From Clostridia bacterium (GTDB taxonomy: Bacteria > Bacillota > Clostridia > UBA1212), in the NCBI GenBank assembly GCA_017444825.1, contig JAFSVU010000015.1:413-64412 (forward strand): DNA of 64,000 nucleotides. The letters are read 5' to 3'. Below are positions 39,532-63,345 of the stretch, in pieces; the first letter of the stretch is position 1, and each line of letters opens with the position of its first letter. The translations under genes and the position numbers were made by a program. The notes beneath the pieces are model-generated. The model was not told the origin of the DNA, did no database searches, and worked only from the letters and a program-made list of their open reading frames with translations.

Positions 39532-40173
39532 CTCAATTTCAAACGCCAATGCCTCCCCCGTCACGGGATGAGAAAATGAAAGCTTTACGGCGCAAAGACC
39601 GAGCTCAGACGAGCCGTCTCTTGCGCCGTATTTTTTGTCGCCGCAAAGAGGAAACCCCCTTGACGCAAACTGGACCCTTATCTGGTGAGTCCTGCCGGTG
39701 ATAAGTCTGATCCGAAGGAGCGAGGTATCTTCCCGCTCCTCTTTTACGTTATAAACAAGCCTCGCCTCCCGGACGCCCTTTCTCATCCTGTCTACCACGT
39801 AGACCTTGTTCTTTGAGCTGTCCTTGAAAAGAAGGTCGCAAAGCTCCCGCCCGCCTTCATCGCAGCCGGGATGTCCGTTCACGAGGGCCTCGTATTCCTT
39901 AACAAGCCTGCCGTTTGCGGCATCTTCGGAAAGAGCCGCTGCCGCCCTCTTCGACCGGGCAAATACCATCAGGCCCCTTGTGCCCGTGTCAAGACGGTGT
40001 ACGGGAAAAATGTCCGTATTTTCGCTTTTTTCGGAAAAATATCTTGACAAGGCAGACGGCAGCGAAGGGACATTTCCGTCCCCGCAAGCCTCGGAGATGA
40101 CCCCCGCAGGTTTTACCGCAACGACTACGTCCCTGTCCTCATATATTATCTCAAGCACAAAAGCTTCAGCCAA
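39520..40173 (-). CDS. RluA-family pseudouridine synthase
   Basis: HRLDTGTRGLMVFA and GRTHQIRVQFA motifs. Confidence 0.7.
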   Translation of the reverse strand: MAEAFVLEIIYEDRDVVVAVKPAGVISEACGDGNVPSLPSALSRYFSEKSENTDIFPVHRLDTGTRGLMVFARSKRAAAALSEDAANGRLVKEYEALVNGHPGCDEGGRELCDLLFKDSSKNKVYVVDRMRKGVREARLVYNVKEEREDTSLLRIRLITGRTHQIRVQFASRGFPLCGDKKYGARDGSSELGLCAVKLSFSHPVTGEALAFEIESNL

Positions 40174-41263
40174 GACTTCTCTCCTCCGCCGCGGCGTTAA
40201 ACATATCGATTATCTTTTCGTAGAGATCACCGTCGAGGGCATTGGTCCAAAGCCCCCTGTCAAGGTGCTCCCTCATGTATTCCGACCTTTCCGAGGCCGT
40301 CGGCGACGTCTCATTGAACCACACCTCAAAGGCTTTGTTGAACTCCTCCACGTAATCCAGGGCCTCATCCGAAAAATCCACGTAGTTGTGACCTCTGTCG
40401 TCAAACTTTACAAAAGCAAATCTTCCGTCGCCCGAAAACTCCTCTTCCAGCTTCCCGAGCCCCGCGCCAATGGGAACCGTTTCATCATCCGAGCTGTGCG
40501 CCACAAGCACCCTGCAGGAGGACTTTTTCAGCCCCGCTATAGCCCCCTCGGTGGCACTGAGGCCGAATTTGATCTTCTCAAAAAGCTTCACATAGGGAAG
40601 AAGCAAAAGGCTTACGGGTCCTGCCTTTTCCATTCCCTCCCGGACTATCATATCCGAGCTGTCGCAAAACCCCGAAAGCACCGCCACCGCAGCTACGTCA
40701 TCCCGCAGGTTCAGCACATTTAAGACGGAAAAGCCTCCCATACTGTGGCCGAAAAGCATGACCGGAAGATCCTTCAGCCTCCCGTCCTCCTTCACGTAAC
40801 CAATGGCCGCATCAAGGTCAAGTGTATACTGGGGAATGCCCTCCGTGCCGCTGCCCTCAGAAAGATCGTTTCCCGCGGCGTCAAACATGAAAACGTAATA
40901 CCCGTTCCTGGCGAACATATATGCGGAGTCCATGTACTGGTTCGCGCCGCCTCCTCCGAAGCCGTGGCATACGACCACCACGCCTTTGGGCATATCCGCC
41001 TCGTCTACGCTGTAAAGATACCCCTGAAGGCTTCTGCCGCAGCTTTTAAAAGTTAAACGTTCCTCCTTCAGTCCCTCAAACTCGGACACGTCGTAGCGCA
41101 GATAGTCCGCAGTCTCAAACCGCCCCGTAAAAACAGCCGAATACACGATCCCGGACACGCAAAAAGGCACCGCAGTCAGCAGCAGCACCGCCGCTACGGC
41201 AATGAGAACGATCCTCCGTATTATTGTCTTTTTCGGGATTTGGCGGCTTTTCATATTGGTCAA
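40166..41263 (-). CDS. membrane-anchored alpha/beta hydrolase
   Basis: N-terminal TM helix. GHSMGG nucleophile elbow. Confidence 0.6.
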   Translation of the reverse strand: MTNMKSRQIPKKTIIRRIVLIAVAAVLLLTAVPFCVSGIVYSAVFTGRFETADYLRYDVSEFEGLKEERLTFKSCGRSLQGYLYSVDEADMPKGVVVVCHGFGGGGANQYMDSAYMFARNGYYVFMFDAAGNDLSEGSGTEGIPQYTLDLDAAIGYVKEDGRLKDLPVMLFGHSMGGFSVLNVLNLRDDVAAVAVLSGFCDSSDMIVREGMEKAGPVSLLLLPYVKLFEKIKFGLSATEGAIAGLKKSSCRVLVAHSSDDETVPIGAGLGKLEEEFSGDGRFAFVKFDDRGHNYVDFSDEALDYVEEFNKAFEVWFNETSPTASERSEYMREHLDRGLWTNALDGDLYEKIIDMFNAAAEERSLG

Positions 41264-41272
41264 TGTGACGGT

Positions 41273-45888: not shown

Positions 45889-46833
45889 TCAGTTCGCGTC
45901 CTCCGGAGTCTTCTCCGTCTCCACTCTTATGGTCGTTCCGTCGCTGTAGAAAACAACTGTTCCGTGGATGTCATTGCGGTAGACCTCAGCCCCGGTGTTC
46001 TCAAGCCTTTTTATAGTCGATTTGTCGGGGTAACCGAGCTTGTTCTCCGTTCCCACCTGAACACAGATGTAGCTGGGAGCGACCGCCTCCAGGAATTTCT
46101 TTATGTTTCCCGCCGAACTTGCGTGGTGGTCCGCCTTGAACACGTCAGCCTTCAGGTCTACGCCTTCAGCTTTCAGAAGCTGGGACTCAACGGGCTGCTG
46201 GGAATCGCCCAGGAGCAGGAATGTCTTTTCGCCGTAAGTGAACTTAATCCCGATGGAGTTGTTGTTAAGGTTCGATTTGTCTTCTTTAAGAGGAGTCATG
46301 ATCCGGAAGGAACCGCCGCCAAGGGTATACACCGCCCCAAGCTCCGGATTCACAGGCTGAATGCCTTTCTCTTCAATGATCGCCAACAGGTTCTTGTAGG
46401 GCTCCTCGGTGCAGAGCTGCTCCACGTTTATGAACATGGTCTCGAAGGGGAAGGCCTCGATTATCTCAGGCATGCCGCCCACGTGGTCTGCGTGTCCGTG
46501 GGTAACCATCAGGTATTTCAACTTTTCGACGCCTTTACTCTTAACGTAATTGACCATTGTCTCGCCGCGGCCTACATTGCCGGAATCTATGATCATGGCC
46601 TCGCCGTCACAAATGATAAGCATGCCGTCGCCGGTCCCGATATCGATGAAGTGGAGCTCAAAGCCCTTCGGCTCAGGTGTGGGCTCGGGAGTGGGCTCTT
46701 CCGTGGGCTCAGCTGTGACCGGTTCCTCCGTGGGTTCCGTTTTTCCCGGTTCGTTTGAAACGCAGCCCGCCGCAAACGCGAGGAACATCAAAACAGCCGT
46801 TATCAGTGTTGCGATCCTGAGATATTTTTTCAT
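45889..46833 (-). CDS. MBL-fold metallo-hydrolase lipoprotein (ComEC C-terminal-like)
   Basis: GGAGG ribosome-binding site. Lipobox AFAAGC. PT linker. HGHADHVGG. Confidence 0.65.
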   Translation of the reverse strand: MKKYLRIATLITAVLMFLAFAAGCVSNEPGKTEPTEEPVTAEPTEEPTPEPTPEPKGFELHFIDIGTGDGMLIICDGEAMIIDSGNVGRGETMVNYVKSKGVEKLKYLMVTHGHADHVGGMPEIIEAFPFETMFINVEQLCTEEPYKNLLAIIEEKGIQPVNPELGAVYTLGGGSFRIMTPLKEDKSNLNNNSIGIKFTYGEKTFLLLGDSQQPVESQLLKAEGVDLKADVFKADHHASSAGNIKKFLEAVAPSYICVQVGTENKLGYPDKSTIKRLENTGAEVYRNDIHGTVVFYSDGTTIRVETEKTPEDAN

Positions 46834-46993
46834 TTCATAACCTCCGCCCGGACATTCCCCCGGGTCTTTTGTTGAAATCACGTGCCCCCATTATACACTC
46901 TTCTCTAAAATGAGTCAAAAGTATCCCTTGCCGCTTCTCCGTATTTTGTGCTATCATTCACTGTACTATAAAGAGGCGAACGGACACTTGCCA

Positions 46994-50863: not shown

Positions 50864-50911
50864 ATTTGTGAAGCAGCAGCGCGCCTGCCATGAAGCCAAC
50901 GAAAATGAAAG

Positions 50912-51050
50912 TTCACGTGAACACCGTCACCGGGTAAAGCTTGGGCTCTTTCGTAGGTTTGGGCGACTCGCTCTGATCGCAGGCCGCAAAAATGAAAATG
51001 CACGCCAATATCGCCAATACAGCCATCATCTTGATTATAGTTTTCTTCAT
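50912..51050 (-). CDS. small lipoprotein (45 aa), below the length cutoff of the six-frame ORF track
   Basis: Translates as MKKTIIKMMAVLAILACIFIFAAC|DQSESPKPTKEPKLYPVTVFT. GGAG ribosome-binding site 9 nt upstream. At the edge of the low-GC islet. Confidence 0.3.
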
Positions 51051-51275
51051 GTAGGGCCATCTCCAATTCATGGTATTTAGACTTTTCAGTGACTACAGAT
51101 AGATAAAATAAGGGGAGAATTGTCAAGTGTTTTTGCGGCAGGCAGGTTTGGCCCGAGGTGTGAGTTTGTTTGGTGCCAGTTTGGCACCTTATTGCAGTAT
51201 TTCTCGTGCCATTTTGGCATTAAAGCAGTTGATTTTATGGTGCCAAAACTGTACAATATTGGCGAGGTGATAAAA

Positions 51276-51746
51276 ATGTCTGTACGACAGCTACGCGAAT
51301 CAAAAGGATTGACGCAGATTCAATGCGCTGAATACCTGCAGATCCCCATCCGGACATACAGGCGATATGAATCCGACGAGAACAAGATCAACCGGATCAA
51401 ATATCAGTACATTATCGATCGACTTAATGCATACGGCCTGATTGATGAAACACACGGAAAGCTGACGATTGACCGGATCAAGGAAGTCTGCAGCCAAATT
51501 TTTCCTTCATATTCAGTGGAGTATTGTTTCCTGTTCGGTTCCTACGCCAAGGGGACAGCGACGGAGACCAGCGACGTTGACCTGCTTGTTTCCGTACCGG
51601 TCAACGGGCTGAAGTTTTTTGAATTGATAGAGCTGCTTCGTGAAAACCTGAAGAAAAAAGTGGATCTTCTGGATGTGGCACAGCTAAACAACAATCCAAC
51701 GCTGGTGCAGGAAATACTAAGAGATGGGGTCAAAATATATGGATAG
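51276..51746 (+). CDS. mnt: MNT-type nucleotidyltransferase antitoxin with N-terminal XRE helix-turn-helix
   Basis: GGCGAGGTG ribosome-binding site. HTH LRESKGLTQIQCAEYLQIPIRTYRRYE. Nucleotidyltransferase motif LFGSYAKGTATETSDVDLLV. Confidence 0.7.
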   Translation: MSVRQLRESKGLTQIQCAEYLQIPIRTYRRYESDENKINRIKYQYIIDRLNAYGLIDETHGKLTIDRIKEVCSQIFPSYSVEYCFLFGSYAKGTATETSDVDLLVSVPVNGLKFFELIELLRENLKKKVDLLDVAQLNNNPTLVQEILRDGVKIYG

Positions 51747-52077
51747 CGCAAAGAATGATGAATACTATGTTGAAAAGATAAAATCCGACTTGAAGTTTGT
51801 GATCGATCACACTGCCGGAAAATCGAGAGAAAAAATCGAATCCGACGAGCTACTCGTTGATTCTATCATGTTCCGTATTATTCAAATTTCAGAGAATAAC
51901 GGAAACCTCACAGAGGATTTCAAAGCCGCACACACCAATGTCCCTTGGATTGCCATCAAGGGCATGCGCAACAAAATCGTACACAATTACGGTCATGTTG
52001 ACTTTGCCATTGTATACGACACAGTTATTCGCGGAATACCTGAGATGCTAAAACAACTAGAAACACTGTCTGATTGA
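51739..52077 (+). CDS. hepT: HepT (DUF86) RNase toxin
   Basis: 8-bp overlap with mnt. Rx4HxY motif MRNKIVHNY. Confidence 0.7.
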   Translation: MDSAKNDEYYVEKIKSDLKFVIDHTAGKSREKIESDELLVDSIMFRIIQISENNGNLTEDFKAAHTNVPWIAIKGMRNKIVHNYGHVDFAIVYDTVIRGIPEMLKQLETLSD

Positions 52078-52111
52078 GTGAAACCCTGTGTGTAAGGGAT
52101 GGCCGTTCCGG

Positions 52112-52936
52112 TCATTTTGCAACTACATAGAATTTAATATATAACATAATCAAAACAAGAAACACATTGCTCAAAACAACTATAATCGGGGTAAGCAGCA
52201 TTGGCTTGACCTTTTTAGCGCTGGCCTTTTGATTCCTTCTAAAACCGTCAAGTCTAAACAATACCGAGGAAAACAGCGCCGAATTCGCAACAATCAGTAT
52301 ACATATGTATCCCAAAATCGACCACTTATCTTCAGGAACGATCAGCAAATAATAAATCAATGCCATAGCGGGAACAGAAAAATAGACACCCCATTTTGCT
52401 ATGAATTTATTATACTTTGCATTCCTGTCATTGCGTTTTCTGGTTTTTTCATCTTCGTTATTCCAATTGGAACTTGCTTCATCCTCAACGCCGTTTAAAT
52501 AATTGTTGAATACCGAACCGCTCAGAAGTTCATTTACAGCGTCCTCAAAATACGTCCGTCTGTATGGATAAAACGATTGGACGTGTCCCAACTGCATGTG
52601 CAGACCATCGTCTAGTTTCGCTTTTTCGTTCAAAAAAACAACTATGCATCTTTTATTTTTACTCTGTGCAAAAGTAACCTCTCCCTTGCTGAGGCTTGAC
52701 TCAACAAAATCTTTTGAAATGAAAAAAATAACGAGTGCGCTGTTCTTCAGTCGTTCAGCCTTAACCGCCACTGTTTCAGACGTCGGCTCACCTTCAGTCT
52801 CGTCGAACCAATTATTGATCAGGCGCTCATTCATGGCTTGAGCGTATTTTCTTATCACATCTATATCTTTTGAATTAAAGCTCAGATAAACATATCTCTC
52901 GGCACTTAACGCTTCCGCCTGTTCGTTTTCCATCAT
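52112..52936 (-). CDS. TIR-like domain protein fused to 3 C-terminal transmembrane helices
   Basis: GGAGGAG ribosome-binding site. N-terminus YVYLSFNSKDIDVIRKYAQAM ... ALVIFFISKDFVESSLSKGE has TIR-like spacing. C-terminal hydrophobic helices WGVYFSVPAMALIYYLLIV, WSILGYICILIVANSALFSSVLF, LLTPIIVVLSNVFLVLIMLYIKF. Confidence 0.5.
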   Translation of the reverse strand: MMENEQAEALSAERYVYLSFNSKDIDVIRKYAQAMNERLINNWFDETEGEPTSETVAVKAERLKNSALVIFFISKDFVESSLSKGEVTFAQSKNKRCIVVFLNEKAKLDDGLHMQLGHVQSFYPYRRTYFEDAVNELLSGSVFNNYLNGVEDEASSNWNNEDEKTRKRNDRNAKYNKFIAKWGVYFSVPAMALIYYLLIVPEDKWSILGYICILIVANSALFSSVLFRLDGFRRNQKASAKKVKPMLLTPIIVVLSNVFLVLIMLYIKFYVVAK

Positions 52937-52968
52937 ACTCCTCCGTGGTCCATCCTGTTCTTTCAGCC

Positions 52969-53748
52969 TTATACTGCAAGCTTGATCATAAAAAGAATTC
53001 CCGTTATTAAAGCTATCGCTATAGTCATAATGATAAGCGCAGCCATAATTGATTTTGTCAAGGTATACCCTTTTTTCGTTCTTCTCAGGAATCTATCAGT
53101 GTAATAAAATATGCCTGCGCCAAGCAGCGGGTATCCGGGTATTGCCAAAATCCAATAGAGAGGCCCCCAGTCACCTCTGAAAATCCTGAAATACTCGGCA
53201 GCTAAGATCGGAACTAAGCTCGGTACAATTCCAAACCTCATTAAGTACTTTAAAAATTTTGGTTTTATGGTCAGATCCTGTGTGGTGTCTGCGTAATCAA
53301 AACTGCCGTCAGTACAGTCACTGAGCGCCTCGATCTTGCAAATACGTTCTACAATGTGATCCGGGTCGCTGTCCTGCCACGCTAGGATAGTGTTTTCCTC
53401 TCTTTGATCAAGTTCAATATCATCCGGAATGACTACATCCTCTTCAAGAAATACATTGACCGTCTCCACTCCGTAACCAATGCTCTCCACAACCTCGCGC
53501 TTGCAGTTGTGAGATTTTACATACTCTTTTGTGATGAAGAATATCGCCGCAGCGCACCTTTTTATGTGCACTCCAATTCTGGCAGGCCATTCGGTTCCAA
53601 CCTCGATCCCTGCATCGAACCAGATCCTGAATCCCTTTTCCTGCAGCTTCGAAAGTATCTGCAACACAATATCCGTGTCCCGGTGACTGTAACTGATAAA
53701 CACGAACGGTTCGTTGCCTCTATAAACACTGATATTCTGCCCTGCCAT
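52969..53748 (-). CDS. TIR-domain protein fused to 2-3 C-terminal transmembrane helices
   Basis: GGAAG ribosome-binding site. Canonical bacterial TIR start PFVFISYSHRDTDIV..., W.D, AAIFFITKEYVKSHNCKREVVES (a Glu at the position of the catalytic Glu of TIR NADases). TM helices LYWILAIPGYPLLGAGIFYY and IMAALIIMTIAIALITGILFMIKLAV. Confidence 0.65.
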   Translation of the reverse strand: MAGQNISVYRGNEPFVFISYSHRDTDIVLQILSKLQEKGFRIWFDAGIEVGTEWPARIGVHIKRCAAAIFFITKEYVKSHNCKREVVESIGYGVETVNVFLEEDVVIPDDIELDQREENTILAWQDSDPDHIVERICKIEALSDCTDGSFDYADTTQDLTIKPKFLKYLMRFGIVPSLVPILAAEYFRIFRGDWGPLYWILAIPGYPLLGAGIFYYTDRFLRRTKKGYTLTKSIMAALIIMTIAIALITGILFMIKLAV

Positions 53749-54141
53749 TTTAAAGCTTCCTTTGATCCATGCTAACCGGTATCACCGCTATTATTGTAAT
53801 GCGAAACACTCACTCTTTCCGCTTTTTTTCAGCAATAAACGTAATGAATACAACTCCGGCGCAAAGCACCGCCAGAGCCTGCCACAGCAGAACACCTGCT
53901 CTGTCCCCGGTGGGCGGGTTAGAGGCACGGACAGTGAGGGTGACTATGTTGCTTGAGTGAAGTATAGCATATGCCGGAGCGGCTGACAACATTGGCTTTT
54001 TTATTTATTTAACGTAGATGGAAAACCGTTTGGTAATGTGATATAATATTCCCCGATCAATAAAGAATGAACAACTGCGGGATGATGCACTGCTCGCGTG
54101 TGAATGCGGGATGCGTCACTTTAACTTGAGGAGGCTTGAGG

Positions 54142-59537: not shown

Positions 59538-61319
59538 TCAATCTTTTTTCTTCCTGAAAGACATCGAAAGCATCGCGGCAGCGCCGGTTGCGATGACCGC
59601 GATTGTCGATAAGGCGGTCCCGCCGCAGCCTTTTTTGTTCCCGGAAGGAGCGTCCGTCGGGTCTTCGTTCGTATTCTCTGCCGTAGGCTGCTCCGTAGCT
59701 TCTGCCGTGGCTGCAGGCTCCTCAGTGGGGTCCTCAGCAGGAGGCTCGGTCGGGTCGGGCGAGGATGAGGGTTCCTCTGTTTCGGAGACCTCACTTGTCT
59801 CCAAGAGCTCGCCGTACTCGATAAAGATGTCGTCGAACAGGACCTCGCTTCCCGTGCCCTCGAGGTCGAAACGCAGAGCGCTGATACCGCTGAAGGTCTC
59901 CGGGTAAAGCGACATGCTGTCCTGCAGCATCTTGCCGTCAAGGAAGATCACGTAGTTCTGCGTATCCATAAAGAAAGCAGCTCCGATGGTGACCGTTTTA
60001 TCCTTTTCAAACGTGCCGACATGCTGGCGGGCGGCGTTCATCACCGTTATCTTGCCGTCCTGACCGGGTTCGAGCCTGATCACCATGCCGCCCCTGTCCG
60101 TGCTGTCGGTGGAGGTTTCCCCCTCGGTTCTGTTTGTGACGCAGAGGTCAAAGCACCCCGCAAGGTCCTTAACTTTTACCGTAAAATAGACAAAAACATC
60201 TGCTTCTGTATCAAGGGGCGGAATGATCATCCAGAATCTCATGTCCAGAAAATCCTTGGCGGCAAGAGCCACGCCGTCGAAGTCCCCGTCGGAATCCGTG
60301 GGCATCACGTAAGAGAAAGAATTGACGAAGGGAGTTCCGGAGGATTTCAGGAACGGAAGCTCGCTGTTGTAGGAGAAAATCTCCGACTCCTGGTTCGGCT
60401 GCTCATATTCGCTTTGCGCAAGCACGTTCTCGAAATCATCATAGAAGCAGTAGTCCTCACTCCTGAATCTGTACGTTTTACCGGTCTGTTCCGAAGCCTG
60501 TCCCATTGGCGTCGCAGCGAGTCTGATATCGTCAAAATATATCTCGTTGACGTGGGAGCTGCCCTTCTGCGAGCGCGAAATGTCGTTCTCCTCAGCCCAG
60601 TCGTGGCAGTCAAATCTGATGGCCGTGACGTTCGTCATTTTCCCGATGTACTTGAAATCGCCAATGCGCTCACCGTTGACAAAAATAACGAATTCGTCGC
60701 TGCACTTCGTAAAAACAGCCTCTACGGTGTACTCGGTGTCCGGATGAAGGTCGTCCGTCACCACAAGCGTTCCGCCCTCTGGGTTCACAACGTAGAGCAC
60801 ATCCTTTCCGGTCGCGTCGTCGGTCCCCGATGAGAAAATGTTCCTGACCCCTCCGCCGTAGTCCTCAACGTGGGTGGACTCCGGAATGCCTGCCAGGAGC
60901 ACGGAAAAGCCGTAATTTCCCAGCGTTTTGTACATAAACTTAAATGAGAAAGATATCTTGGAGCCATCGCCAAGAGACCCGAGACCGAGCCCCGTTATAC
61001 GCATGTCGGCCACTCCGCCGTCGTAACGCATGAATCTCAGCGACTTCGTTCCGCCGATCCTGTTTGCACTTACGAGCGCGCCGCTCCTTTCACCGTCTCC
61101 GATGAACTCGCTGAAGCCTGCGGGCTTGTTTCCTTTGGCGTCGTTGAAAACGAACTCCTCTGTCTCGCCTGCAGATGCCTCAAACCCTTCAAAGTTTTGG
61201 GAGTAGAACGTTTTCTCCTCCGCTCCGTCTCCTTCCGCAAAAGCGCCGAAGCCGGAAAAAGAAAAAGCCGTCAGAATGGCGATAAGAATAGCCGCAAAAG
61301 CGGAAAAGCTTTTCTTCAT
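59538..61319 (-). CDS. secreted/cell-surface hypothetical protein with C-terminal Pro/Thr/Glu linker and TM anchor
   Basis: Start at 61319 (MKKSFSAF... signal peptide). C-terminus PT-rich followed by GCGGTALSTIAVIATGAAAMLSMSF-RKKKD. Confidence 0.6.
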   Translation of the reverse strand: MKKSFSAFAAILIAILTAFSFSGFGAFAEGDGAEEKTFYSQNFEGFEASAGETEEFVFNDAKGNKPAGFSEFIGDGERSGALVSANRIGGTKSLRFMRYDGGVADMRITGLGLGSLGDGSKISFSFKFMYKTLGNYGFSVLLAGIPESTHVEDYGGGVRNIFSSGTDDATGKDVLYVVNPEGGTLVVTDDLHPDTEYTVEAVFTKCSDEFVIFVNGERIGDFKYIGKMTNVTAIRFDCHDWAEENDISRSQKGSSHVNEIYFDDIRLAATPMGQASEQTGKTYRFRSEDYCFYDDFENVLAQSEYEQPNQESEIFSYNSELPFLKSSGTPFVNSFSYVMPTDSDGDFDGVALAAKDFLDMRFWMIIPPLDTEADVFVYFTVKVKDLAGCFDLCVTNRTEGETSTDSTDRGGMVIRLEPGQDGKITVMNAARQHVGTFEKDKTVTIGAAFFMDTQNYVIFLDGKMLQDSMSLYPETFSGISALRFDLEGTGSEVLFDDIFIEYGELLETSEVSETEEPSSSPDPTEPPAEDPTEEPAATAEATEQPTAENTNEDPTDAPSGNKKGCGGTALSTIAVIATGAAAMLSMSFRKKKD

Positions 61320-61558
61320 GATAAAAATCTCTCCTTTTTTATAAAGCACGCCCCGAGTCGGGGATGCACTGCTGAAAGTCTTCGTTTATCATACCAAAAT
61401 TATCAGCCGTTTTCAATTACTTCGTGTTTGCAGGCTCCCGGGGTACGGGCCACGCCAATGTAACCCCTTGACGCATTTATCAAAAACGCATATAATGTGT
61501 GTGGGCAAATCGGCAGTAAATCAAAAAAACTGCCGAAATACCAGAAGGCAGGGTACGC

Positions 61559-62299
61559 ATGGCAGATACATCGGTTATTTTGAACAGAATTGGCAATAGG
61601 CGTCCTTTTGCACGTTATGACCTGCAGAAGGTCATGACAGAATGCGGTTATCAAACCAATGGAAGCATCACAAACCACATGATCACAAGAATGCTTTCTG
61701 CAGGAGAGATCGTAAAGATCGGGCGTAACAAATACTGCGTATCGGATTCCCTGAAGGCATATCGCTTTTCACACTCTGAACTTGCGGTCTCATTGGCAAA
61801 TGAGATCATTGGCGCTCATCCGTATCTGGATTTTCGCATATTTGAACTTATTCAACTTAACGAGTTTGTTAATCACCAGATAGCGCAAAACATAGTCTTT
61901 GTGTCTGTGGAAGCTCCGCTGGAGGAAGATGTTTTTAATACCCTTTGGGAAAAGCATAAAGGCTCGGTTCTGATCAAGCCGGATGCTGACGAGCTGTTCC
62001 GTTACATGAATGATGAAATGATCGTGATAGCTAAGCTTCCGACCGAAAGTCCGAAAGGGATAAATGTTTTCTGGGATACACGGATAGAGAAATGGCTTGT
62101 AGACATTGCTGTCGATAAACTTATCAGTAAAGTCGTTTATTCGGGAGAGTACCCGGCCATATATCAGGATGCGTTCGCCAAGTACGCCATTGACAAAAAC
62201 ACTATGTTCAGATATGCAAAGCGAAAAGGTGCATCAAACAAGTATATGGATTTTCTTGTGAACGACGCCGGGATAAATCGGGAGGACCTCAACATATGA
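61559..62299 (+). CDS. abiEi: AbiEi-family type IV antitoxin / transcriptional regulator
   Basis: N-terminal winged-HTH-like segment ending in the KIGRNKYCV (RGxY-type) motif. 4-bp overlap with the downstream nucleotidyltransferase gene. Confidence 0.55.
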   Translation: MADTSVILNRIGNRRPFARYDLQKVMTECGYQTNGSITNHMITRMLSAGEIVKIGRNKYCVSDSLKAYRFSHSELAVSLANEIIGAHPYLDFRIFELIQLNEFVNHQIAQNIVFVSVEAPLEEDVFNTLWEKHKGSVLIKPDADELFRYMNDEMIVIAKLPTESPKGINVFWDTRIEKWLVDIAVDKLISKVVYSGEYPAIYQDAFAKYAIDKNTMFRYAKRKGASNKYMDFLVNDAGINREDLNI

Positions 62300-63345
62300 T
62301 AATCAGGGAAAACTTTGGCGAAGAGCACATCCGGGAATTGCAAGGCAAAAGCAGGATGGATCCACAGCTTATAGAGCGTGCTTTGTATGCTCTGGGGTTG
62401 CTGGAGGCATTGGCGCAAACAGGCATGAGTTTTATTTTTAAGGGCGGAAGTTGCCTGATGCTCCTGCTCCCGCATATTATGCGATTGTCCACAGATATTG
62501 ATATTATTGTTCGTCCCGGAACAGATGTTAAAGACTATATCAAAAAGGCTGCTGAAATCTTTCCGTTCGTTTCCTTTGAGGAACAGGTACGTGTCGGAAA
62601 GAACAAAATCGAAAAAAGACACTTCAAATTTACATATTATTCTCCGGTCAGACACGGTACGTTTTATATCCTGCTTGACATTCTTTACGAAGAGGATCAT
62701 TATGCGGCTCTGGTTGAGAAAGAGATTCAAAATGAGTTGCTGCTTACAGAAGGTGCCAACCTTTCCGTCAGTGTTCCGTCTATAGATTGTATCCTTGGCG
62801 ACAAGTTTACTGCGTTTGCGCCTTACACTACCGGAATTCCGCTGCGAGCCAAAAAGGATCTTGAAGTAATGAAACAGTTTTACGACATCGGAACTCTGAT
62901 CGATGGACACAGAAACTTCAGAAATGTGATGGAAACATATAAAGAAATCGTTCTGTCTGAAATCAGTTATCGTGGACTAAATATCACTGCCAGGGACGTG
63001 CTTGAGGATACGATATCTGCTGCCATAGTGATCGCTTCCCGCGGCAAGGTTGGAAAAGAAGACTACCCGCTTTATGTTGAAGGAATACGGAGTCTCGGAA
63101 CCCATGTGTTTGGAGAGCGTTTCTCCGGTGAAATTGCTTCTTACCGGGCGGCTAACCTGATCTACATGGCAGCTTGCCTGATGACAGAGACGCCGTATGG
63201 ATCTGTAAGCAGTTATGAAGAATACGCCAATGAGCCGCTGACGCAGGCGGATCTGAGAGTGCTTTCAAAAATGAGAAAAGCTCAGCCCATACAGTATGCA
63301 TATCTGGTAAAAGCTGACAGACTGCTAAGCGAATTCCGAGAGTAA
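62296..63345 (+). CDS. abiEii: AbiEii/AbiGii-family nucleotidyltransferase toxin (DUF1814)
   Basis: GGGAGG ribosome-binding site. FKGGSCLMLLLPHIMRLSTDIDIIV matches the KGGTAL...RfSeDiD signature. Confidence 0.6.
   Translation: MIIRENFGEEHIRELQGKSRMDPQLIERALYALGLLEALAQTGMSFIFKGGSCLMLLLPHIMRLSTDIDIIVRPGTDVKDYIKKAAEIFPFVSFEEQVRVGKNKIEKRHFKFTYYSPVRHGTFYILLDILYEEDHYAALVEKEIQNELLLTEGANLSVSVPSIDCILGDKFTAFAPYTTGIPLRAKKDLEVMKQFYDIGTLIDGHRNFRNVMETYKEIVLSEISYRGLNITARDVLEDTISAAIVIASRGKVGKEDYPLYVEGIRSLGTHVFGERFSGEIASYRAANLIYMAACLMTETPYGSVSSYEEYANEPLTQADLRVLSKMRKAQPIQYAYLVKADRLLSEFRE

Follow-up and report, generated by a model that had tools for sequence, protein, structure and literature searches.

Two paralogous TIR genes with predicted membrane anchors on a strain-variable islet of a Clostridia bacterium

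What might a bacterium gain from two adjacent genes that each join a TIR domain to a membrane anchor, with no recognizable partner gene at their side? TIR domains have a central place in the immunity of animals, plants, and bacteria, and the question is raised by a stretch of 64,000 nucleotides from a Clostridia bacterium (GenBank assembly GCA_017444825.1, contig JAFSVU010000015.1, positions 413 to 64,412 of the forward strand; hereafter the window), in which an initial annotation had picked out two such genes in an AT-rich patch and had suggested that they could form a self-contained signaling and effector module. We find that the observation is real and that the interpretation placed upon it is partly right. 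The explanation we prefer, which we put at about an even chance, is that the two proteins, here called A and B, would be membrane-tethered TIR enzymes that cleave nicotinamide adenine dinucleotide (NAD+; hence NADases), that are activated by clustering, and that serve in an abortive-infection or stress response. The argument concerns the following features, in which TM denotes transmembrane, ORF open reading frame, and AF2 AlphaFold2.

52969 to 53748, minus strand: gene A, a TIR-3TM protein of 259 residues (ORF call, Pfam TIR_2, AF2, Foldseek, and conserved-column comparison).
52112 to 52936, minus strand: gene B, a diverged TIR-3TM paralogue of 274 residues from the first ATG (ORF call, Pfam TIR_2, AF2, and conserved-column comparison).
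53308 to 53709, minus strand: TIR domain of A, residues 14–147 (Pfam and alignments).
52496 to 52903, minus strand: TIR domain of B, residues 12–147, with a degenerate BB-loop motif (Pfam and alignments).
53494 to 53496, minus strand: codon of the predicted catalytic Glu of A, E85, within NCKREV (sequence reading and alignments).
52679 to 52681, minus strand: codon of the predicted catalytic Glu of B, E86, within SKGEV (sequence reading and alignments).
52978 to 53232, minus strand: predicted three-helix membrane anchor of A, residues 173–257 (Kyte-Doolittle hydropathy, AF2 helices, and segments rich in Lys and Arg).
52127 to 52393, minus strand: predicted three-helix membrane anchor of B, residues 182–270 (Kyte-Doolittle hydropathy, AF2, and Lys and Arg charges).

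The two ORFs lie on the same strand with a gap of 32 nt from A to B, and each is preceded by a ribosome-binding site; the second ATG of B, at 52933, is the start chosen by database gene callers and is most likely the true one, giving a protein of 273 residues. The Pfam TIR_2 profile (PF13676) has a gathering cutoff of 28 bits, which both proteins exceed, A with 66 bits (E = 5.7e-18, residues 16–108) and B with 41.3 bits (E = 2.6e-10, residues 16–137). The AF2 models show the flavodoxin-like TIR fold and have a mean pLDDT of 79–80, with values of about 95 over the TIR domain (residues 11–140) and of 50–75 over the tail, and 49 of the 50 PDB matches listed by Foldseek for each model are TIR domains at probability 1.00, including those of TLR15, SARM1, RPP1, RPS4, SPARTA TIR-APAZ, AbTir, SpbK, and ThsB. 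The one exception per model, at rank 39 for one and 48 for the other, is a nucleoside 2'-deoxyribosyltransferase-type enzyme. Sequence comparison with solved structures returned marginal TIR matches only (Cat1 and BtTir), and E85 of A aligns with the Glu of the WCWDEL motif in Cat1. TIR domains that act only as scaffolds typically lack this catalytic residue, which belongs to the betaC-alphaC motif, is found in A as in B, and is invariant in 21 of 21 and in 80 of 80 relatives. Sequence and models together indicate that A and B are genuine TIR proteins with a predicted catalytic Glu. A third TIR-like match in the window (40169–41272) proved spurious and is an alpha/beta hydrolase.

The alignments also indicate that A and B are full-length paralogues, as the initial annotation had supposed, with 22% identity over 260 residues (E = 1e-15) and an alignment that extends through the hydrophobic tail. 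The manner of their divergence can be seen at 34 columns that are each at least 80% conserved across 80 independent relatives, of which A, the canonical copy, has kept 26 and B 16. A retains the BB-loop signature (G47, I48, G51, and W54) and the N81-C82 pair, and is without the G..MQL...Q motif (G110 and Q119), K94, and A89; B retains the G..MQL...Q motif and the other positions lost in A, and is without the NC pair and the BB-loop signature. As the structures of SARM1, AbTir, and SPARTA have established, active TIR assemblies are built by contacts of the BB-loop with a neighboring domain. Because the losses are partly complementary and such assemblies rely on BB-loop contacts, the pair can be read as a heteromer that arose by subfunctionalization, and the frequent TIR-TIR fusions on one anchor among relatives lead to the same picture; A and B would thus probably form a hetero-oligomer.

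The C-terminal membrane helices expected of both proteins are borne out by hydropathy, by AF2 helices, and by charge. Three helices of B exceed a Kyte-Doolittle threshold of 1.6; in A, one helix is strong (2.79), and the two that align with TM1 and TM2 of B are borderline (1.46 and about 1.5); the AF2 helices in the hydrophobic tail of A span residues 174–191, 206–223, and 230–258. Lys and Arg residues contribute +4 in A and +8 in B ahead of TM1, and +6 and +7, respectively, in loop 2, and loop 1 is short and non-basic. Since these charges obey the positive-inside rule, a three-pass topology with the N terminus in and the C terminus out is indicated for both proteins, and we predict a cytoplasmic N terminus and TIR domain, a three-helix anchor, and an outside C terminus with almost no ectodomain.

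Does the membrane part then act as the effector? This is what the initial annotation had in mind, namely that a signal derived from NAD by the TIR domain would gate the C-terminal helices of the same chain as a pore or membrane disruptor. TM helices do execute in ThsA of type II Thoeris (Macro-TM), in ThsF of type V (a three-TM DUF2270 protein), and in SLATT proteins (10.64898/2025.12.03.692087), and the A-B locus has no separate effector gene. However, no ligand-binding domain was found between the TIR domain and the TM helices of A or B, which are joined by a linker of 25–45 residues that AF2 models with low confidence and as poorly ordered, and the tails resemble no effector family: the isolated C-terminal 105 and 115 residues, searched against Pfam with E up to 10, gave sub-threshold generic TM matches only (HisKA_7TM, MASE1, and TRIQK) and none to DUF2270/ThsF, SLATT, or Cap15-like membrane effectors. 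Many relatives, moreover, have a single TM helix followed by an ectodomain of leucine-rich repeats (LRR) or Sel1 repeats, or no TM helix, so that the membrane part is variable and connector-like. We regard it as quite improbable that signal generator and pore reside in one chain.

How unusual the architecture is can be judged from the relatives. Word-index searches with A and with B returned identical proteins from one "Clostridia bacterium" species together with TIR-only matches, and a homologue search with a further alignment (A3) did not recover TIR-3TM relatives among the 8000 candidates scored. An exhaustive HMMER search with a joint profile of A and B gave 16065 representatives at E ≤ 1e-3; scanning GTDB, with each species represented by one genome, gave at least 600 pattern matches and at least 564 confirmed relatives. 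About half of the best 150 representatives have TM helices after the TIR domain, 28 of them at least three, and among the best 149, 33 have one TM helix followed by a long tail; the combination had been thought to lie outside known architectures, and in this respect the initial annotation does not hold. Two to seven TIR domains per chain are present in 66 of the 149, and seven have a TIR-TIR-multiTM order. The closest relative among the representatives, P0009, is a TIR-TIR-3TM protein (E = 7.6e-100) whose tail has motifs in common with A, such as EY.RIF.G.W and an IK pair near the C terminus, and A and B match P0009 and the further TIR-3/4TM proteins P0094, P0097, P0132, and P0143 over their full length. 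Giants of 1500–2300 residues with five to seven tandem TIR domains of this subtype also occur (P0015, P0016, P0030, P0047, and others), and in several of them the TIR domains are followed by a TM helix.

From the genome scan, the best 79 loci were kept, and a set of 80 related proteins was assembled. Nearly all of these loci belong to gut or rumen Clostridia (Oscillospiraceae, Lachnospiraceae, Acutalibacteraceae, and others), with a few from Coriobacteriia and Erysipelotrichales, and several metagenome-assembled genomes carry multiple copies of the TIR_2 subfamily. In nearly all of the ORFs called for these loci, the start of the TIR domain falls among roughly the first 50 residues, and in the remainder it lies further in. 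Pfam finds TIR_2 in all 80 proteins, LRR_8 in 17, BspA-type LRR_5 in 13, LRR_4 in 10, and Sel1 in 7, as well as TPR, MORN, FtsK, and TM2, and the subfamily can be recognized by the signature Y.G..PYIFISYSHKD ... WFD.GIE.GSEWPE ... S.NC..E followed by one or more TM helices, which A and B fit. In the case of the cultured strain Butyrivibrio sp. VCD2006 (NZ_KE384106.1, locus L037:7001-9136), the protein has a TIR domain at residues 11–115, a TM helix at 191–209, and LRR at 350–491, an order that places the repeats across the membrane from the TIR domain. The same sequence of N-terminal TIR, one TM helix, and C-terminal LRR is seen at L059 and L070 and in about 30 of the 80 related proteins. Adjacent, co-oriented TIR genes like A and B are found at L010 (three genes), L012, L025, L065, and L072, and adjacent genes in divergent or convergent orientation at L013, L067, and L081. 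By these sequence criteria, A and B are minimal members of a very large, uncharacterized clostridial TIR_2 subfamily. The best-supported reading is that the N-terminal TIR domain would be its constant output module and that the membrane and C-terminal part (LRR, Sel1, TPR, or TM bundles) would be a variable anchor or input. Proteins of the A/B type already stand in databases under the generic name "TIR domain-containing", and a literature search of incomplete coverage turned up no description of a clostridial TIR-TM(-LRR) family.

The surroundings of the relatives bear on two further explanations. Among 123 immediate flanking genes, the most frequent family is peptidase M20, with three occurrences, and the rest are YicC, DJ-1, HAD, GH43, AraC, and the like; beside 77 related loci, no recurrent partner family and no MntA/HepT pair was found, and PADLOC matches are singletons only. 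Conservation in the defense islands of other genomes, for which the initial annotation had proposed to look, is therefore not a trait of the family, and the relatives stand without a known system partner. Of the two findings that the initial annotation had named as refuting it, a pair routinely embedded in a known system and N-terminal domains that fail TIR searches, neither was made. The gene for P0009 (L087:8001-9308) is found with the origin-proximal cluster dnaA-dnaN-recF-remA-gyrB-gyrA, 48 nt downstream of gyrA, P0094 follows trkA-yajC, P0143 sits between rubredoxin and MFS genes and GH43, and P0132 adjoins an AAA+ ATPase and unannotated genes. The P0009 gene is followed 13 nt on by one for a 462-residue protein with a faint WG_beta_rep match, and one would not usually expect a presumed suicide enzyme in an origin-proximal gyrA cluster. 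Across 67 loci, the GC content of the TIR genes differs from that of their flanks by a median of -0.008. As for mobile sources, viral contigs gave one weak match, INPHARED phages two weak matches, PLSDB plasmids six matches to the TIR core, and JGI metagenomes one weak match, and the near absence from viral contigs, phages, and plasmids leaves a phage- or plasmid-borne origin of the A-B pair unsupported. As judged from sequence context, the family consists of resident, stand-alone membrane proteins rather than of defense-island cargo, and the window pair, which lies on a variable islet, is exceptional.

One explanation on which these neighborhoods bear is that A and B are ThsB-like sensors of a split Thoeris-type system, making a signal derived from cyclic ADP-ribose (cADPR) or ADP-ribose (ADPR) for an effector encoded elsewhere. 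PADLOC does give weak, partial ThsB matches (E = 1.7e-4 to 2e-2), Pfam ThsB_TIR is found in 29 of the 80 relatives, a Thoeris locus typically has several thsB genes, and TIR proteins from the gut are able to make v-cADPR isomers (PMC9092222); a match to the NCBIfam ThcB4 profile reaches 19.6 bits for a cutoff of 220. Yet the linkage of TIR gene to effector that defines Thoeris is missing, as no ThsA-type or other recurrent gene adjoins the TIR genes at the 77 related loci or here, and we give this reading only a slender chance.

The second explanation is a role outside defense, in which the family would be a lineage-specific group of envelope or surface receptors or scaffolds in the manner of Toll-like receptors, with A and B as co-receptors or adaptors that lack an ectodomain and pair with these receptors through TIR-TIR contacts, whether in ordinary physiology, in sensing of the host or community, or in local NAD signaling. 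It accords with the housekeeping contexts, the native GC content, the several copies per genome, and the lack of enrichment near defense genes, as well as with the BspA-type LRR and Sel1 ectodomains, which are typical of surface-interaction proteins, and with the loss of many conserved TIR positions in B. Against it, the catalytic Glu is invariant family-wide, B included, and this favors an enzyme over a pure adaptor; moreover, the islet on which A-B lies is rich in AT, variable among strains, and shared with a toxin-antitoxin pair, a setting typical of accessory conflict genes. We consider this possible but doubtful.

The islet itself and the genes it carries besides A and B are as follows.

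50890 to 54100, no strand assigned: AT-rich, strain-variable islet carrying A-B (left edge from strain comparison; right edge approximate, from GC content).
53961 to 53989, minus strand: best sigma-70-like promoter, TTGTCA-17-TATACT with an extended TG, upstream of A-B (consensus match only).
53810 to 53992, minus strand: ORF of 60 residues whose entire content is a sorting signal of the NPXTG/LPXTG type (PPTGD, then a hydrophobic stretch and KKRKE).
51120 to 51746, plus strand: HTH_3-MntA nucleotidyltransferase antitoxin, separate from the TIR unit (Pfam, PADLOC, and NCBIfam).
51724 to 52077, plus strand: HepT RNase toxin, overlapping mntA by 23 nt and convergent with gene B.
50913 to 51071, minus strand: small ORF of 52 residues (45 according to gene predictors) at the islet's left edge, with a lipoprotein-type signal peptide (…IFAAC).

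The AT shift noted in the initial annotation is confirmed, the islet having a GC content of 43.1% compared with 52.2% for the rest of the window, with a drop from 52–57% to 38–46% between about 50750 and 54250. A strain contig that is 99% identical (L085) matches the window to position 50889, just past the stop codon of a LiaF-like gene, and then continues into wholly different cargo, which fixes the left edge of the islet to the base and shows the islet to be strain-variable. On this contig, from a strain in SRR14586339, the same site holds a 377-residue fragment (L085:2646-3779, minus strand) with no Pfam match, which from its motifs we would guess to be an AAA-ATPase/DUF234-like protein; because a different gene occupies the site in that strain, the site behaves as an integration hotspot. 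Scans for repeats and inverted repeats between 50000 and 55000 revealed none of att-like or terminal type at the borders of the islet, and an exact-protein look-up of the GGDEF-EAL neighbor gave no record, so the right boundary stays approximate. Outside the islet are a LytTR regulator and the LiaF-like membrane protein, and a PAS-GGDEF-EAL protein. The 60-residue ORF reads as the decayed 3' end of a gene for a wall-anchored protein, truncated at the right side of the islet, and the promoter-like site of A-B (53989–53961) falls within it; the lipoprotein-signal ORF at the other end may be a fragment.

Could the nucleotidyltransferase next to B supply what A and B would need to be effectors of an antiphage signaling system based on cyclic oligonucleotides (CBASS) or of Pycsar, with MntA as the cyclase? 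MntA does have weak PADLOC "Cyclase" matches (best E = 6.6e-6) and an NCBIfam CBASS_cyclase_b match (E = 1.4e-3). These, however, span just 37–50 residues or so of the generic nucleotidyltransferase core, and the MntA, Polbeta, and NTP_transf_2 profiles score far better (E = 1e-13 to 1e-15); the 23-nt overlap with the HepT gene is the classic layout of a type VII toxin-antitoxin system, the two genes converge on the TIR genes, A and B have no nucleotide-sensing domain, and no relative has such a neighbor. We reject this explanation, which has almost no likelihood. As had been reported, no cyclase, SIR2, SLOG, or Macro gene adjoins the pair, and profile scans for these and for SAVED, STING, and cNMP-binding domains were negative within 4 kb on either side and in the further window ORFs that were scanned. 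By sequence, the overlapping, co-oriented HTH-MntA and HepT genes are a type VII toxin-antitoxin pair (HepT-like, E = 2.2e-17), with NCBIfam equivalog scores of 52.8 and 27.2 against a cutoff of 60 that mark them as divergent members. The mntA ORF, in which the antitoxin is fused to an HTH_3 domain at its N terminus, is listed from a TTG; translation more likely begins with an ATG at 51276, which has a GAGGTG ribosome-binding site and a promoter-like site at 51229–51257 and would give 156 residues. The initial annotation was correct in placing this pair beside B. It accompanies none of the 77 related TIR loci and is a coincidental passenger of the islet, a module unrelated to the TIR genes.

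Two other places in the window may be mentioned. About 8 kb from the TIR islet, at 61559–63345 on the plus strand and in a second patch of low GC content (about 44%, 61250–62000), a DUF6577 protein is followed by an AbiEii nucleotidyltransferase toxin, a layout that resembles an AbiE/type IV toxin-antitoxin pair. At 45889–46881, on the minus strand, there is a metallo-beta-lactamase-fold protein for which our Pfam scan gave Lactamase_B and Lactamase_B_2 only, and the precomputed Pfam matches include a weak one to Anti-Pycsar Apyc1.

That A and B are active enzymes, that clustering activates them, that they form a heteromer, and that they serve in defense is inferred in what follows. We envisage that A and B would be co-transcribed as an operon of two genes, on an AT-rich islet of recent acquisition, and that the two proteins would most likely be NAD+ glycohydrolases or ADPR cyclases. 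A stimulus acting on the membrane part, for which candidates are a perturbation of the envelope or membrane and a phage or other foreign membrane protein, would cluster A and B in the plane of the membrane; clustering would bring about TIR-TIR oligomerization, with A and B probably acting as a hetero-oligomer, and hence cleavage of NAD+ at the inner face of the membrane, and the depletion of NAD+ would lead to growth arrest. There are precedents for parts of this scheme. Single-gene TIR defense systems are known in Escherichia coli, and one TIR system there has TM segments (PMC11350192). Another precedent is the stand-alone TIR NADase SpbK (PMC12847820), and in the TirC protein of Dictyostelium a TM tether restrains a TIR NADase of bacterial derivation (PMC13142454). 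When gut bacterial TIR proteins were screened in vitro, 28 of 152 were active as NADases, and v-cADPR isomers can be among the products of such proteins (PMC9092222).

Several considerations weigh against the proposal that A and B are clustering-activated NADases. The motif around the catalytic Glu departs from S-x-W-C-x-x-E, which we take to be the common form, by a change of W to N. The first two helices of A are of borderline hydrophobicity, and pLDDT is 50–75 in the TM part. The relatives are found amid housekeeping genes (gyrA, yajC, trkA, and GH43), with flank-like GC content and no nearby defense genes, and such contexts, without enrichment for defense, weaken the case for a dedicated anti-phage role of the family; for the islet copy A-B, an anti-phage role is plausible. 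Finally, in the gut screen, 124 of the 152 TIR proteins had no NADase activity (PMC9092222).

A bolder proposal, which we offer as speculation and consider rather unlikely, is that A and B constitute a heteromeric, membrane-embedded TIR NADase that directly senses membrane events, such as phage genome injection, holins or foreign membrane proteins, or depolarization, and that they are the stripped-down representatives of a hitherto unrecognized class of bacterial transmembrane TIR receptors whose larger members detect extracellular cues. If this is true, TIR-TM-LRR and TIR-TM-Sel1 proteins would signal inward via NAD+ cleavage and would be a functional prokaryotic counterpart of Toll-like receptors outside the classical defense islands. 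To our knowledge, the characterized bacterial TIR systems are all soluble or leave action at the membrane to a separate effector, and a membrane-integrated TIR family of catalytic type would add a new kind of wiring in which transmembrane sensing is coupled to NAD+ cleavage. The TIR-TM family is abundant in gut and rumen Clostridia, with LRR or Sel1 ectodomains in many of its members, and it might bear on NAD metabolism in the gut ecosystem, where products of microbial TIR NADases have been detected (PMC9092222). The A/B pair, which is small, self-contained, on a mobile islet, and present as two diverged copies, offers a convenient minimal entry point, and the interest of the family would rise substantially if transmembrane sensing were demonstrated for it.

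Which known system does the pair most resemble? In CBASS and Pycsar, effectors most often act either as TIR NADases or by TM disruption (TIR-SAVED, TIR-STING, PycTIR, and PycTM), and the best PADLOC match of the pair is SAVED_TIR, though it covers TIR positions 12–94 only; those effectors carry a nucleotide-sensing domain and adjoin a cyclase gene, whereas A and B do neither. With Thoeris (ThsB together with the type II Macro-TM effector ThsA or the type V DUF2270 effector ThsF), A and B have in common TIR domains, three-helix membrane modules, and multiple TIR genes per locus. In Thoeris, however, TIR domain and membrane effector belong to different proteins, the latter with a pocket for its ligand, whereas A and B each combine TIR domain and helices in one chain that has no ligand-binding domain and no DUF2270 or Macro match, and there is no adjacent effector gene; a systematic survey of Thoeris set stand-alone TIR proteins aside. 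Toll-like receptors and TirC are similar in that a TM segment positions a cytoplasmic TIR domain at the membrane, and the A/B relatives likewise have LRR ectodomains across the membrane. The order is inverted in the A/B family, with the TIR domain N-terminal and the ectodomain C-terminal, and A and B have no ectodomain; the TIR domains of Toll-like receptors are scaffolds, whereas the A/B family retains the catalytic Glu, and common descent beyond the TIR fold is unsupported. Stand-alone TIR NADase defense proteins, in which oligomerization induced by a trigger and loss of NAD+ are thought to activate the response (PMC11350192, PMC12847820), share with A and B a TIR domain with a catalytic Glu as the sole enzymatic module, no linked effector, and a location in variable or mobile DNA. 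They differ in being soluble, whereas A and B are a diverged pair anchored by three predicted TM helices each, and in sequence they resemble A and B no further than in the generic TIR core; SpbK is a match in fold only, at rank 27. By analogy, A-B would work most like these stand-alone TIR NADase defense proteins, with a membrane tether added.

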